Positions 19,938 through 29,480 of a stretch of DNA of 64,000 bases are shown here, one piece after another. Source of the DNA: a virus. Taxonomy: Duplodnaviria; Caudoviricetes. Made by a program: the position numbers and the translations under genes. The notes below the pieces were generated by a model. The model was not told the DNA's origin. It searched no databases and worked only from the letters and a program-made list of their open reading frames with translations. The stretch covers positions 64,001-128,000 of the IMG/VR virus record IMGVR_UViG_2834368228_000004; one strand, 5' to 3'. Positions within the stretch are counted from its first letter, which is position 1. Each line of letters opens with the position of its first letter.

Positions 19938-22900
19938 TTAAGCGCCTAGCTTGATTAGCTTCCCTACTTCTAGGTTAACAGTGCGAGTACCTTTGCCGAG
20001 GTTACAAGCATCTACTGATAACATGAACTTATCATGACCTAGTAGTGGGGAAATGTTGTTTCTTGAGTTATATGCAAAACCTACTTCAGTCTTATTAATG
20101 AATAGCTTATACTTGTCACCTACACCTTGAATAAAGATGCTTTGAGTAGATAAGCCTTCTAATACTGTGTCTAATGTAAACTTCTCTTGAATGTCATCTG
20201 GAATACATACAGCAACAGTGAAGTTATTATCAATCACTTGATTAGATACAATTTGATCTTGCTTCGGTTTATTCTCCATGTAAGAAAGAGTTTGAATGAA
20301 TGCTTCACGTGTAATCGTCCAAGGGAATGAAAGACCTGCATCTTGTTTACGATCTACATATGTTGCATAGTATGCTGCATATCCGATATCTTTAGCTGGA
20401 TACTGGCTCATTAGTTCTGCTACTCTGTCACGAGCTTGTTCAGCAATCGTACCGATGTGAGTTGAAACCATCTCATCGATTTCATTCATTTTAAGTTCAC
20501 GTTCTCCTTCTTCAAGGTTGCCACTCATAATCTTATTCTTATATTCTTCTGCTCCTCTGTATGTTTGACGAACAGCGCCACCGTAACCTGCTTTGATTTG
20601 TTTTACTTGATTCAATAGCATGTTAAAGTAGTTTGGATCTAAGTTGAATGAACTGTTCATCTTAGTAAGCAATGAGTAGCTGTTAGCATCTTGATACATA
20701 ACTTCTATTTTGTTAGTAAGCTCTTTATCTTCAAAGTCTTGTACCATTTCCATTAGTCTAGATAATACGGATCCTACATCATGTCCGTCTTTACCTTTAC
20801 GGCTTGCCAACCAGTTAGGCTTATTCCATACTCTTCTGCCTAATCCTTTATTGAAGTAAGATAGCTCTTCAGGTGGGTTAACCATGAAGTCTAATGTTTC
20901 TTTCATCACTTCTTGATAAGCACCACCGTGTTTAGCTGCATCAATTTCCCATCCTTGTACAAGGCGAAGAATGTTGATCCAGTTTTCATACTTGTTAATA
21001 CGTTGTAGCATATTATCTTTCTCTTGAGGTGATGCATCTTTAATCATATAGTCATAGCCGATACCACGAACACCATCAGCTAAGATACTAGCGATGTTTG
21101 TTGCTAATCCGATTTTGTTAGGCTTCAACGTTCTGATAACATAGTCGATACCTAGTTTATGAATCTCTTCATAAAGAGCGGTTGTTTTCTGTCTATCTGT
21201 GAAAGTAACACGATAGTTGCTTTGGCTAACAACCATGTCAACTGGTAAGCGATACACACCAGTCATTGGCTTAGAGTATGGAACACCATCTCCAAGAAAT
21301 TCTACTTCTCCATTCACATCTGTGAAAGAGATATCCATTAATGGTGGGAATACTTTACGTTGTAATGCTTCTACAACTGCTGGCTCTGTAACAGTTAATG
21401 CTGTATCACCATCGTTGTCTGCTCCACCCATTGCGAATGTAGCAAAGTCATGAACACTCATAACTAGCAAGTTACGGAATCCACCTTTACGAGAAGCTTG
21501 ATTATACACTTCAATACCACGATTACGTAGTACTTGCCACTCACCTTTAGCAATCATTGGATTACGACCAGCCGCTACATACAAAGGTGATTTATCTTTG
21601 TGTGCAGATGGGATGTAAGCTTCATTTGGTTGAATGTGATAGTCACCACGATTAGTAATCATCAGTTGACCTTCATCATTACGCACTTCATATTTTGTAC
21701 CAGCTTCTAGTACAGCATATGGATCTTGAATCATGTAGCGGTAGTGTCCTTCTACTGGAATGTTACCAGTTTTCCACTCTTGAATCTTTTCTTTCAACAC
21801 ATCTAATGCATAACGTTTCATTTGTACATCATCGTAGGACCATTCGAACATATCCAAGAAAGTAGTAAACGTGGATACACGAGATTGATCTAACAGATAG
21901 TGTTCTACTTCTGCATCAAGTAAATCGGAATCAATGACTTTATCTAATCCGACATACTTCTTCATAAGAGATGGATCATGCAATGCATTACCGATTTCAT
22001 CTAAATGTGGTTTCAATACATTCCACAAGTCATTAACATTGAGTGAAGAAGCTTGAATGAATTGATATGGCATATCAGTGTAAGACTTAACTTTACTCAT
22101 TGGCTTGTTGAACATAGCAATACGTAATTGTGGTACAAAGTTAGGGTTAGATTTGAATAGTAACTCAAAGCTACCTTTTACTGCTGACTTAAGTGCAACT
22201 ACATGTGCATCATAATAGCTGCGTAAGTTAGGAACAAAGATCATTAAGCCTTTTACAAATGGAGTAATACGAATTTGCCATGCATCATTGAACTGGCCAA
22301 ACTCCGCTCCAAGTGTATGATACATTTCTTCATCACAGAATAAAGCTCCATCAGCTGCAGTTAGTGTAATTGGATGCTCACTTGCATCGAATACTCTGAA
22401 CTCTTGACGTTCCTTATCCCAAGCACGGTACGTACCAGTGTTGATTTCAACAAAGCGGTCTTCTACCAATGCAATCGTATGAGTTCCACCAGTTAGATAT
22501 TGATCTCCAGTCTCAATATTAGTGACTACTTCGTTACCAAAGCGGACTGTCTTAGATGCAATACTGTTCGTACCAGCTAGTCCTGGACGAGTCATCATTT
22601 TGTCTACATCGATTACATAGTTGCCATCACGATCTACTTTTGCATAAGCTAAGAAATCATGTCCAAGCACACGATATGCATCGATAGGGGACATTACATT
22701 TGTATCAATGAATACTGCTTGCAATAGTCTTGCTTGTGAAGCTGAGCGTAATAAGAAGAATGCATGACTTTCATCACCATGCTCATTCATGTAATAGAAA
22801 CCTTCTTTCATAACTTTCGTACGAAGCTCTACTAATTCATGATCTTCTTCAGTGTAATCCATTTCATCCTCTGGAAGCTCAATGTACAAGTCTGCAAAGA

Positions 22901-23474
22901 AGATGTGACGCATTGGCAGCATAACACGTTGTTTAATCAATTGACCATCCTTCGTGAATTCAATTACTTCAGAAGCGGATGCAAAGCTTTCACTTAGGAA
23001 TGACTCACTGATCTCTTTGTAAGAATCAACATTCACTTCAGTATAATCAATTGTAGAATATACTTTATCTTCACGTAGCTCCATGCTATTTATCTTAGCA
23101 ATAGGAACAAGAACACCTTTACGTGTTGGTGCATATACACGATTAGCTAGTTTGTGTGAACTAACAAACTCTTTGAAGTAGCGAAACTGATTAGATGGTA
23201 CATCAGCAATAGATGGATCTTTAAGAATATCAAGTAGTACATTACCTTTTGACATAGCATTTAATACACGAGCAAAGTTCTTAGAGTTACGTGACTTGAA
23301 TCCTTCAGCAACAGAAAGAGCTGCTAAGATATCTTGTACAGTAAATAGGTATCCATTTTCTTGTAGTAGTGAGCGATTTTCGATAGTTGTGTTCATAGTT
23401 AAAACATCTCCTTTAGTTTGGTTGTTTAATTTAGTTGATAAAGATTTCGCAGTTTGATTTTTCATAGTAATCAT
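19938..23474 (-). CDS. Single-subunit two-barrel RNA polymerase (YonO / eukaryotic RdRP-like)
   Basis: ADG, WQIRITPFVKG, GRNPMIAKGE, MGGADNDGD catalytic DxDGD motif, KIGLATN, EIDAAKHG; likely starts at 23465 or 23396. Confidence 0.85.
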   Translation of the reverse strand: MITMKNQTAKSLSTKLNNQTKGDVLTMNTTIENRSLLQENGYLFTVQDILAALSVAEGFKSRNSKNFARVLNAMSKGNVLLDILKDPSIADVPSNQFRYFKEFVSSHKLANRVYAPTRKGVLVPIAKINSMELREDKVYSTIDYTEVNVDSYKEISESFLSESFASASEVIEFTKDGQLIKQRVMLPMRHIFFADLYIELPEDEMDYTEEDHELVELRTKVMKEGFYYMNEHGDESHAFFLLRSASQARLLQAVFIDTNVMSPIDAYRVLGHDFLAYAKVDRDGNYVIDVDKMMTRPGLAGTNSIASKTVRFGNEVVTNIETGDQYLTGGTHTIALVEDRFVEINTGTYRAWDKERQEFRVFDASEHPITLTAADGALFCDEEMYHTLGAEFGQFNDAWQIRITPFVKGLMIFVPNLRSYYDAHVVALKSAVKGSFELLFKSNPNFVPQLRIAMFNKPMSKVKSYTDMPYQFIQASSLNVNDLWNVLKPHLDEIGNALHDPSLMKKYVGLDKVIDSDLLDAEVEHYLLDQSRVSTFTTFLDMFEWSYDDVQMKRYALDVLKEKIQEWKTGNIPVEGHYRYMIQDPYAVLEAGTKYEVRNDEGQLMITNRGDYHIQPNEAYIPSAHKDKSPLYVAAGRNPMIAKGEWQVLRNRGIEVYNQASRKGGFRNLLVMSVHDFATFAMGGADNDGDTALTVTEPAVVEALQRKVFPPLMDISFTDVNGEVEFLGDGVPYSKPMTGVYRLPVDMVVSQSNYRVTFTDRQKTTALYEEIHKLGIDYVIRTLKPNKIGLATNIASILADGVRGIGYDYMIKDASPQEKDNMLQRINKYENWINILRLVQGWEIDAAKHGGAYQEVMKETLDFMVNPPEELSYFNKGLGRRVWNKPNWLASRKGKDGHDVGSVLSRLMEMVQDFEDKELTNKIEVMYQDANSYSLLTKMNSSFNLDPNYFNMLLNQVKQIKAGYGGAVRQTYRGAEEYKNKIMSGNLEEGERELKMNEIDEMVSTHIGTIAEQARDRVAELMSQYPAKDIGYAAYYATYVDRKQDAGLSFPWTITREAFIQTLSYMENKPKQDQIVSNQVIDNNFTVAVCIPDDIQEKFTLDTVLEGLSTQSIFIQGVGDKYKLFINKTEVGFAYNSRNNISPLLGHDKFMLSVDACNLGKGTRTVNLEVGKLIKLGA

Positions 23475-24079: not shown

Positions 24080-24129
24080 AGTTAACACTCCTTTTGTTTG
24101 TTTTTAAGTTGATTAAAGTAATACATTTC

Positions 24130-24196
24130 AAACAGGCATAAGCCTCTCATAGACAGCGAGCGGTCACTCTAAGAGAACCATCTATGGCATCTGTTT
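24130..24196 (-). ncRNA. Unassigned pseudoknotted structured RNA
   Basis: Outer AAACAG/CTGTTT, P1 ATAGATGG/CTGTCTAT, hairpin GAGT/GCTC, pseudoknot CTCTTA/TGAGAG; GU wobbles only work on minus strand. Confidence 0.5.
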
Positions 24197-24221
24197 AACC
24201 CAATACAGTGGGATGTTCACA

Positions 24222-24303
24222 TGCTTCAACGTGCTGAGTGGTCTAAGACCCATGCCTATCTTCGACCACTACATAGATAGGGTGAGGGGATGTTCCTGAA
24301 GCA
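24222..24303 (-). ncRNA. Unassigned pseudoknotted structured RNA
   Basis: Outer TGCTTCA/TGAAGCA, hairpin CCTATCT/AGATAGG, loop AGTGGTC pairs with downstream GACCACT. Confidence 0.5.
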
Positions 24304-24319
24304 ACGACAACATAGCTAG

Positions 24320-24805
24320 TTAAGCTATCAATGAATAAGCGAATACATCAAACACTTCACTAAGCCCTACAAAGCCTTCATGCATAACTGTTGATATGAA
24401 GTAGATAGGTGCTATAGCAAGCAAGATACCTGTTGATGATAAGAGACCAACACTTAAATGTTTGAATGCTGTTGCAACCATATCTCTACCAGTAGCTAGA
24501 TGCTTGTATCTGTTGTAGTAGGAGATCATCTTTACTCCTGCATAGAATGTTGCACTAACAGGTATAAACAAGGCTCCTTGTGTGACAAGGCCTGCTGCAA
24601 ATGAAGTTGTTGTCACTAGAGCAGCTGATTTCCAATGCTTAGCCGACAGTTCCTTCACGTTCTTGTAAGCTGAGCCTAGCCCTCGCTTTACAGAAGTGAC
24701 AGCTTTAGATGCCTTAAACTTACTCCAACCTTTCTTCACACTCTCTAAAACATCAGCAAATACATTACCTTTCATGTCTTCTTTCGCTTGTACTGTGATA
24801 ATCAT
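24320..24805 (-). CDS. Membrane protein with basic amphipathic N-terminus
   Basis: 161 aa, GAAAGGA RBS, two to three hydrophobic segments. Confidence 0.65.
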   Translation of the reverse strand: MIITVQAKEDMKGNVFADVLESVKKGWSKFKASKAVTSVKRGLGSAYKNVKELSAKHWKSAALVTTTSFAAGLVTQGALFIPVSATFYAGVKMISYYNRYKHLATGRDMVATAFKHLSVGLLSSTGILLAIAPIYFISTVMHEGFVGLSEVFDVFAYSLIA

Positions 24806-24853
24806 GGTAAATCCTTTCTATATGCTCGGTTTTATGTCATGAGCTGGACTAGT

Positions 24854-24922
24854 TTGACTTGTCTTATCAATGCAGGGATAGTCAATCACCTACAGACACC
24901 CCTCCTCTAGGGTGTTTCGACA
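24854..24922 (-). ncRNA. Hammerhead ribozyme, type II, U3-A8 core variant
   Basis: UGUC-GAAA-CACCCU/GGGGUGU-C^ UGUAGG/CCUGCA-UUGAUAA-GACA; loop I UUGACU pairs with 3' tail AGUCAA; predicted cut between 24895 and 24894. Confidence 0.85.
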
Positions 24923-25099
24923 TTAAAGGGATATGATTGTGTATCCTTCAGCATCTACTCCAAGATTTACTTCTGCTTTCTTAACCGCATTAATAATCAA
25001 GTGCTGATTGTATCCTCGTTTCATTAAGTCTCCGAAACGAATAACCTTTCCTTGTCCTTTGATTTGCTTGAATAGAGTTACCAGTGTGTTTGTTTGCAT
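24923..25099 (-). CDS. 58-aa protein, first gene of the leftward transcript
   Basis: AAAAGGA RBS; MQTNTLVTLFKQIKGQGKVIRFGDLMKRGYNQ...; stop codon abuts the hammerhead. Confidence 0.6.
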   Translation of the reverse strand: MQTNTLVTLFKQIKGQGKVIRFGDLMKRGYNQHLIINAVKKAEVNLGVDAEGYTIISL

Positions 25100-25237
25100 T
25101 CTTCATCATCCTTTTCAATTAGTAGTAGGGGGTGGGGGCGACAAACGCCTATTAGAAAACCCTATTAAAAAAGGTGCTACCCTACGCAATTTTTTTATAA
25201 AAAATGTCCCATATAGGGATTTCCCCATGTTTGTGGG

Positions 25238-28414: not shown

Positions 28415-28486
28415 TGGGATATAGCTCAGCGGTAGAGCAATCGGCTGTTAACCGATAGGTCGTAGGTTCGAAACCTACTATCCCAG
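28415..28486 (+). tRNA. tRNA-Asn(GTT)
   Basis: Acceptor TGGGATA/TATCCCA, anticodon arm ATCGG-CTGTTAA-CCGAT, GTTCGAAAC T-arm; CCA not encoded. Confidence 0.95.
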
Positions 28487-28578: not shown

Positions 28579-28653
28579 TGCGGTGTAGCTCAGTTTGTGT
28601 AGAGCGCTTGGTTTGGGTCCAAGAGGTCGCAGGTTCAAGTCCTGTCACTGCAA
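28579..28653 (+). tRNA. tRNA-Pro(TGG)
   Basis: Acceptor TGCGGTG/CACTGCA, anticodon arm CTTGG-TTTGGGT-CCAAG, GTTCAAGTC T-arm. Confidence 0.93.
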
Positions 28654-28669
28654 TCGATAATATTAAAAG

Positions 28670-29480
28670 AAATATCGGCTTGGCGATGATAGCTATGCGT
28701 GAGTATAGTAAAGGTGGTTTGACAAACTGCCGCTACATATGTAGTCAATCCAAGCACTACGACTTTCCAGGTCTTCATGTAACCAATGGAGATAGCTTTT
28801 GAAATCAAAGGAGAGTTCCTTGCGAGGGCAACGCTGTAGCGAGGTGGCATTAGGTGGCACTGATGCGCTCCACGCCAATTTGATTAAAAAGTGAGAAAGA
28901 ATCGGAAGGCTATCAGTTTGAGGTTTGACAACCAAAGGCGTTAGTCAATGTCTAAAGAGACCTGTCAACTACATATAAGATTGGCACAGTACCTTTAGGG
29001 ATCGTTCGAGTAACTAGTCGGTGAAAGAACAGGGTGGTGTGTGGTATTTTGTTCTCCAAAAGGGAATGAAGCCACTGGAACAGCACATCATCAGTTGAAA
29101 GGATAAATAATAAATTATAGTTTCTTATTTGGGAATAAGAGTCCAATACAACATATTACATTACAGTGAAAGCCTGTTCCACGAAATAACGAAAGCGACT
29201 TAATCCTTCACTCCATGAGAATGAAGGGGCTGATGAGTCTCGCAAGGCTCAAAAGCTTTTGTTCCGATTTGCAAGGTTCTCTTAGCGGAGATTTGTAGCG
29301 TGGCAACGTTGACTGAATTTGAAGAGCAGAGTAGTTATTTCGATGTGTCATATTATGCTAGACACATTAAACTAAAGCAGTCGTGGTCATTACTTGAGCG
29401 CTTATAGGTTCAAGTGGACACGTGAGGAATACATAATCTCACTAAAGATGACTAAGAAAGAGTTTAGTCTCAGCTCTTTC
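28670..29480 (+). ncRNA. GOLLD RNA (~800 nt)
   Basis: Hairpin-dense region with no credible ORF after tRNAs; GOLLD-like GGTGGTGTGTGGTATTTTGTTCTCCAAAAGGGAATGAAGCCACTGGAACAGCACATCA segment and terminal GAAAGAG-TTTAGTCTCAG-CTCTTTC hairpin; boundaries approximate. Confidence 0.8.

Follow-up and report, generated by a model that had tools for sequence, protein, structure and literature searches.

Hammerhead ribozymes of type II topology were first described from nature by Perreault et al. (2011; PMC3088659, PLoS Comput Biol 7:e1002031), who found them to be common in bacteria and prophages. The phage representatives (RF02276) have an open stem II, closed stems I and III, a GAAA, a core of the CUGANGA type and a pseudoknot (4 bp or more) that pairs loop I with the 3' tail following stem II and is needed for fast cleavage; they are intergenic and placed directly before a ribosome-binding site. 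Such elements flank genes in phage transcripts, and the role suggested for them is to cut long RNAs into gene-length mRNAs; some natural core variants are slow or inactive, and it has been speculated that the slower phage variants are regulated (PMC3088659).

The same study documents, under 'Core nucleotide variation', the natural covariation of C3-G8 to U3-A8. Ribozymes with exchanged positions 3 and 8 are active in vitro (Przybilski and Hammann, 2007, as cited in PMC3088659), and the title of that work, as given there, states that the tolerance depends on the surrounding elements. About 1,300 minimal hammerheads with U3-A8 have been reported from the Penelope-like elements of Schistosoma (Cervera and de la Pena, 2014; PMC4209133, Mol Biol Evol 31:2941), and three type II hammerheads have been found to cleave in vivo in Desulfovibrio (PMC8782182).

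This work describes a type II hammerhead with the U3-A8 core in a window of viral DNA of 64,000 nucleotides, the whole stretch that was analysed. The element occupies positions 24854–24922 of the minus strand and is, on the evidence of sequence comparison, very probably a genuine and selectively maintained self-cleaving ribozyme, which lies in the first spacer between genes of a leftward, non-structural operon and would cut the transcript of that operon after its first gene.

The window belongs to a large Firmicutes-type myovirus. The plus strand encodes terminase, portal and tail sheath from ~33.7 kb onward, and the nearest named relatives by tail sheath (29–30% identity) are two large Firmicutes myoviruses, Bacillus phage 0305phi8-36 and Moorella phage MTATph1. 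The plus strand also carries a full-length GOLLD RNA (29032–29476; 205.9 bits, E 1e-56) just downstream of two tRNA genes (28415–28486 and 28579–28653, Rfam).

Up to ~25.1 kb every gene is on the minus strand and beyond 25.3 kb every gene is on the plus strand, so that the 58-aa gene at 24923–25099 (minus strand), next to the strand switch, is the first of the leftward unit; it is followed by genes for proteins of 161, 67 and 145 aa and then by that of a 1178-aa protein. The stop codon (TAA) of the 58-aa gene is at 24925–24923 and the hammerhead therefore starts on the next base (24922), in agreement with the sequence-only reading made earlier from this DNA. The downstream 161-aa gene extends, together with its ribosome-binding site (GAAAGGA, 24818–24812), over 24320–24818 (minus strand), with its ATG at 24805–24803, and appears to encode a membrane protein. 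Neither the 58-aa nor the 161-aa protein matched any family of Pfam or PHROGs, lenient E-values included. An IMG/VR search with the 58-aa protein, made independently of the RNA, returned a sole relative (64% identity) on contig IMGVR_UViG_2617271113_000004 (hereafter L001; 191 kb, a provirus rated 97% complete), and the protein collection contains one of 98% identity. The 161-aa protein is 34% identical to the product of the syntenic 161-aa gene of L001; a pattern search for its relatives in IMG/VR found none.

Further along the unit, a non-coding gap of 230 nt (24089–24319, minus strand; 363 nt in L001) separates the 161-aa and 67-aa genes. Rfam gave no match to this gap at E-values up to 5; two pseudoknot-like elements had been flagged there by the sequence-only reading. 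The 1178-aa protein (19938–23474, minus strand) matches the Pfam family RdRP (PF05183, E 6.9e-8), that is, the fold of the eukaryotic RNA-silencing polymerases, and tblastn against phage records gave only a weak match for it, in Bacillus phage BUCT082 (22.7% identity).

No convincing terminator was found between the 58-aa gene and the downstream genes of the leftward unit, and a sigma-70 scan for the promoter of the operon performed no better than on shuffled sequences. At the strand-switch region, about 30 nt upstream of the start of the 58-aa gene, both the window (25125–25150, minus strand) and L001 (L001:2950–2975) carry a hairpin of the form GGCGUUUGU(C/A)GCC followed by a C-rich run, CCCACCCC. 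The conserved hairpin and C-rich run at 25125–25150 could be the start signal of the operon.

Read on the minus strand from 24922, the RNA has the sequence UGUC GAA ACACCCU-AGAGGA-GGGGUGU C / UGUAGG-UGAUUGACUAUC-CCUGCA UUGAUAA GACA AGUCAA, where the slash marks the predicted cut. The order of the strands is that of a type II hammerhead: loops close stems I and III, and stem II opens to the flanking sequence. The 5' strand of stem II, UGUC (24919–24922, with C11.1 at 24919), pairs with GACA at 24860–24863 (G10.1 at 24863). It is followed by the core nucleotides G12, A13 and A14 (24916–24918), invariant in all 46 distinct sequences of the family alignment described below, and by the stem III hairpin (24896–24915, from A15.1 at 24915 to U16.1 at 24896), which has seven pairs (ACACCCU/GGGGUGU, including A15.1-U16.1 and one U-G) and the loop AGAGGA. 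The alignments to RF02276 and to the covariance model R1 (see below) place the predicted cleavage site between C17 (24895) and U1.1 (24894), where it had been put from the letters alone. Stem I (24871–24894) follows with six pairs, UGUAGG (24894–24889) with CCUGCA (24876–24871), around a loop I of 12 nt (24888–24877), and leads to the core segment U3 U4 G5 A6 U7 A8 A9 (UUGAUAA, 24864–24870), in which U3 (24870) and A8 (24865) stand in place of C3 and G8. Finally, UUGACU in loop I (24880–24885) is complementary to AGUCAA (24854–24859), the 3' tail directly after stem II; the resulting 6-bp pseudoknot starts at nucleotide 10 after the cut. A second AGUC in the tail region (24851–24848) is an alternative partner for the GACU of loop I.

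The stems of six (I), four (II) and seven (III) pairs thus surround the core and align to every paired position of both RF02276 and R1. The core is complete: it comprises UGAU and A (24869–24866 and 24864), GAA (24918–24916), the pair A24915-U24896, C24895 and the pair G24863-C24919, and U24870 and A24865 are able to pair, so that the Watson-Crick interaction between positions 3 and 8 is kept while the literal letters C3 and G8 are not. The minimum free energy fold of the isolated element contains all three stems (z = -2.6), and these persist when a context of 166 nt is folded. The type II hammerhead first reported for this site, with its three stems, GAAA, GUC triplet, UUGAUAA core and 6-bp pseudoknot, is accordingly correct to the base.

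The Rfam search at gathering thresholds returned only the GOLLD RNA and the two tRNAs for the window, and no hammerhead. The Hammerhead_II model (RF02276), with which a check had been proposed, aligns with the element over its entire length (1–66 of 66), with core mismatches only at positions 3 and 8, but the 24.4 bits that it gives fall short of the gathering score of 37; the E-value is 0.0089 for a search of 401 nt and 1.4 for 64 kb. The gathering score is the annotation cut-off of one model rather than a structural or biochemical property. It is conservative for this subfamily, because the L001 ortholog, which has the canonical CUGAUGA core, fails as well (29.3 bits); it follows that the core change is not the sole reason for the low score. 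Taken alone, the RF02276 match is suggestive, not decisive, and its E-value of 1.4 for the whole window would fit AT-rich intergenic DNA that happens to resemble the hammerhead consensus by accident.

The probability of such a coincidence is negligible in view of two further searches and of the comparative data, which refute it. A structural descriptor of our own, which demands a Watson-Crick pair between positions 3 and 8, G10.1-C11.1, A15.1-U16.1, a nucleotide other than G at position 17 and minimum stem lengths of 3, 5 and 5 pairs, is matched by exactly one site in the window and by none in 100 dinucleotide-preserving shuffles, both strands being scanned. A pattern built from the features common to the window and L001 drew 27 stretches from IMG/VR, all of them obvious type II hammerheads, and 21 distinct phage hammerheads, with the window left out of training, were used for the covariance model R1. 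This model scores the element at 62.8 bits (E 2.7e-14), a value that is partly circular because the window also satisfies the pattern that gathered the training loci; it is the only credible match in the window, where a second hammerhead was sought with R1 and none was found (next match 12.9 bits). No hammerhead was detected by R1 in the complete genomes of 0305phi8-36 and MTATph1, and the locus had no blastn match among phage and plasmid records. Coincidence is further contradicted by the presence of a hammerhead at the syntenic site of L001 and by a pseudoknot register identical to that of the family.

Gene order is the same in L001, where the 58-aa gene (64% identity) is followed by the hammerhead, an invariant sequence motif and the genes for the 161-aa (34%) and 67-aa (48%) proteins. 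The L001 hammerhead (L001:3183–3254) is the only one in that genome. It resembles the element of the window in its flanking genes, in the register of stem I and of the pseudoknot and in the downstream motif, and has features of its own, namely the CUGAUGA core, a GUA triplet instead of GUC, a stem II of 3 bp (AUC/GAU) and a pseudoknot of 5 bp. Between the two ribozymes stem II shows a double compensatory change (G-C in the window, A-U in L001), as do stem III and the pseudoknot (U-A to C-G; UUGACU/AGUCAA versus UGACC/GGUCA), whereas the changes in stem I are compensating single ones (G-C/U-G to G-U/C-G). The pair between positions 3 and 8 is U3-A8 in the window and C3-G8 in L001. As the ribozyme has been kept at a syntenic site with changes that preserve pairing, while the neighbouring proteins have diverged to 34–64% identity, the element is under selection as an RNA structure. 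L001 provides the one true ortholog for this comparison, next to the further 58-aa protein of 98% identity from the protein collection.

A broader comparison was made possible by about 25 additional hammerheads which R1 found in the same IMG/VR loci and which had not been selected by the pattern, bringing the family to 47. In the alignment of these 47 members (46 distinct), into which the pseudoknot and the 3-8 pair were written, 92.6% of the cells are standard pairs and 18 of the 22 pairs show changes on both sides. None of 500 shuffles reached the observed values, and sliding the partners reduced the paired fraction to 30–42%. RNAalifold predicted the junction de novo from 12 members, with covariation in 11 of 16 pairs. 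Covarying pairs in the family include five of seven in stem III, all five modelled in stem I and five of six in the pseudoknot. The pseudoknot begins with nucleotide 10 past the cut in the window, in L001 and in two further loci (L006 and L030), and among the members with a long loop I it covaries, taking forms such as UGGCU/AGCCA, UGGUCA/UGACCA, UAGCCU/AGGCUA, GUGAGA/UCUCAC and UGGACU/AGUCCA. At position 17 (H17) 44 of the 46 sequences have C, and L001 and L008 have A. Four small phage contigs of IMG/VR (L022, L024, L030 and L014) contain dense clusters of 5–7 type II hammerheads within a few kb; some members of these clusters have U4C cores (CCGAUGA), and several have C or A at N7.

The 3-8 pair deserves separate consideration, as it bears on the possibility that the element is a hammerhead by descent which is catalytically dead or nearly so, with only its two stable hairpins retained, for RNA stability or insulation between the genes. 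The rarity of the core speaks for such a relic: in the 46 distinct family sequences the pair is C-G in 43, U-G in two (L007 and L013) and U-A in the window only (1/46). The Rfam score below threshold, and the existence of natural core variants that are slow or inactive (Perreault et al., 2011; PMC3088659), point the same way.

Two scans were carried out for sites with A8 in which position 3 was left free (C or U), one in a metagenome collection and one in IMG/VR. The former gave a single site (L032), a GC-rich and unrelated type II hammerhead with the core UUGAUAA and a 6-bp pseudoknot. The latter gave three, of which two (L052 and L053) have UUGAUAA with different stems III, the L052 copy adjoining three canonical paralogs, and one (L054) has CUGAUAA. 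Altogether U3 accompanies A8 in four of five variants (the window, L032, L052 and L053) and C3 in one (L054); these represent four lineages, three of them U3-A8. Among the family members with G8, U3 occurs in 2 of 45, against 4 of 5 among the A8 variants found; a Fisher test on the counts as entered gave p = 2.5e-4 (1e-3 with lineages collapsed). The predominance of U3 among A8 variants of four lineages indicates selection for the 3-8 pair, which is at odds with a relic. Both one-step intermediates between C3-G8 and U3-A8 exist in nature: the U3-G8 wobble core (UUGAUGA) is seen in four IMG/VR contigs (L007:502–569, L013:2011–2078, L018 and L020) and the C3-A8 mismatch core (CUGAUAA) in one phage type II hammerhead (L054:1638–1705).

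A dead or nearly dead hammerhead is on the whole unlikely, because the only changes in the core compensate each other, being exactly those that preserve the Watson-Crick interaction between positions 3 and 8, and everything else is intact, that is, the other core nucleotides, G10.1-C11.1, A15.1-U16.1 and the pseudoknot, whose 6 bp keep the correct register. Maintenance of the ribozyme architecture, against 34–64% identity in the flanking proteins, adds to this. The type II hammerhead with compensatory U3-A8 core and pseudoknot that the sequence-only reading had proposed finds support in the canonical core of the syntenic ortholog, in the family covariation, in the enrichment of U3 among A8 variants and in the literature, and the description of U3-A8 as a tolerated natural variant agrees with Perreault et al. 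(2011; PMC3088659) and Cervera and de la Pena (2014; PMC4209133).

Outside the hammerhead, between it and the ribosome-binding site of the 161-aa gene, lies the conserved motif mentioned above, AGUCCAGCUCAUGACAUAAAACCGAGCA (24823–24850, minus strand), which begins four nt after the pseudoknot tail and ends about 5 nt before the ribosome-binding site. Its general form is (A/U)GUCCAGCUCAUGACAUnAAACCGAGC (27–28 nt), located just upstream of ribosome-binding sites. It recurs nearly identically in L001 (L001:3259–3286) and is also found at L002:5311–5337 and L004:4492–4518 (both minus strand). The motif occurs without a hammerhead in L002, an unrelated phage contig of 158 kb, in two small IMG/VR contigs (L004 and L005) and at its sites in 13 Streptococcus contigs (L033–L045). 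The streptococcal copies lie in the leaders of genes of a mobilizable element of the FtsK/RepB type, often right after a -10-like TATAAA; no homolog in the window was found for the sigma-r4-like protein that this element encodes.

Rfam gave no family match for the motif at 24823–24850, for which reason its identity with a known riboswitch or leader was rejected, and a multi-copy phage promoter was rejected on account of its single copy in the window. A search with a relaxed pattern for variants that might reveal RNA-helix covariation gave only one chance match in a coding region (L057). The motif could be a small H-type pseudoknot (UGUC/GACA and GCUC/GAGC) or a DNA operator (TGTC-N8-GACA).

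The proximity of this motif is relevant to the proposal that the ribozyme is active but deliberately slow or conditional, in which case the weaker U-A pair would slow cleavage so far that only a fraction of the transcripts is cut and so set the ratio of full-length to processed mRNA, perhaps in concert with the invariant motif 4 nt downstream. As the tolerance of 3/8 exchanges depends on the surroundings, judging by the title of Przybilski and Hammann (2007), U3-A8 could be slow here, and the speculation of Perreault et al. (2011; PMC3088659) on regulated slower phage variants, the extreme conservation of the 27-nt motif immediately after the ribozyme and the alternative AGUC partner (24851–24848) of loop I can be cited in its favor. 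It is nevertheless highly unlikely: no structure for ligand binding or switching can be recognized, the motif stands alone, with no hammerhead, in L002 and at the Streptococcus sites, and the canonical core of the ortholog, in the same context, shows that this site does not need a slow one.

A tentative and rather doubtful extension is that of a leader in two parts, of which the hammerhead would form one. Cleavage would free an mRNA with the motif in its 5' region, where it would serve as a signal bound by a host factor, and U3-A8 would tune the share of the operon transcript that enters this pathway. If this were true, the motif would represent an undescribed element common to jumbo Firmicutes phages and streptococcal integrative mobilizable elements, recognized by a conserved host factor either as a small pseudoknot RNA or as an operator.

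For an active type II hammerhead, the preferred reading, we infer cleavage, its rate and the fate of the mRNA from the observed anatomy, homology, positional conservation and covariation. On transcription of the operon the RNA would adopt its three-stem junction, stems I and II would be docked by the pairing of loop I with the 3' tail in the pseudoknot, and the U3-A8 pair would stand in for the usual C3-G8. The 2'-OH of C17 (24895) would then attack the adjacent phosphate and the chain would be cut between 24895 and 24894. Of the two products, the 5' one would comprise the 58-aa gene and terminate in a 2',3'-cyclic phosphate at the GC-rich hairpin of stem III. The 3' one would open with a 5'-OH exactly where stem I begins, and on it would lie the leader motif, the 161-aa gene with its ribosome-binding site and the genes that follow, among them that of the 1178-aa polymerase of RdRP fold. 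As each product would be capped by a helix, cleavage should affect the stability of the mRNAs and decouple the two parts; the likely effect is that the mRNA of the first gene is uncoupled from the rest, giving two messages that are separately stable and separately translated.

The U3-A8 covariation, the pseudoknot between loop I and the tail and the intergenic location of phage hammerheads have all been documented before (Perreault et al., 2011), and since the main features are thus described the element of the window is an ordinary new example of a documented rare variant, which leaves the knowledge of hammerheads in general unchanged. Its interest lies in providing a clean natural case of the exchange of C3-G8 for U3-A8 between orthologous ribozymes, which supports the 3-8 pair of the active hammerhead structure. 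It also illustrates that real phage hammerheads are missed both by searches with a consensus string, as had been predicted for strict CUGANGA searches, and by the Rfam threshold. In addition, it marks a candidate processing site, useful for transcript mapping, in an operon that encodes an unusual single-chain polymerase of RdRP fold.

Compared with the phage hammerheads of RF02276, with which it shares topology and location, the element differs in its UUGAUAA core and in a score below the gathering threshold of that model. It is also single in the 64-kb window, as is its ortholog in 191 kb, whereas many phage examples are clustered (L022, L024 and L030). With the natural U3-A8 covariants of Perreault et al. 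(2011) and of the Penelope-like elements it has in common the same compensatory exchange of C3-G8; unlike in those published cases, the exchange is seen here between the syntenic orthologs of two related jumbo phages.
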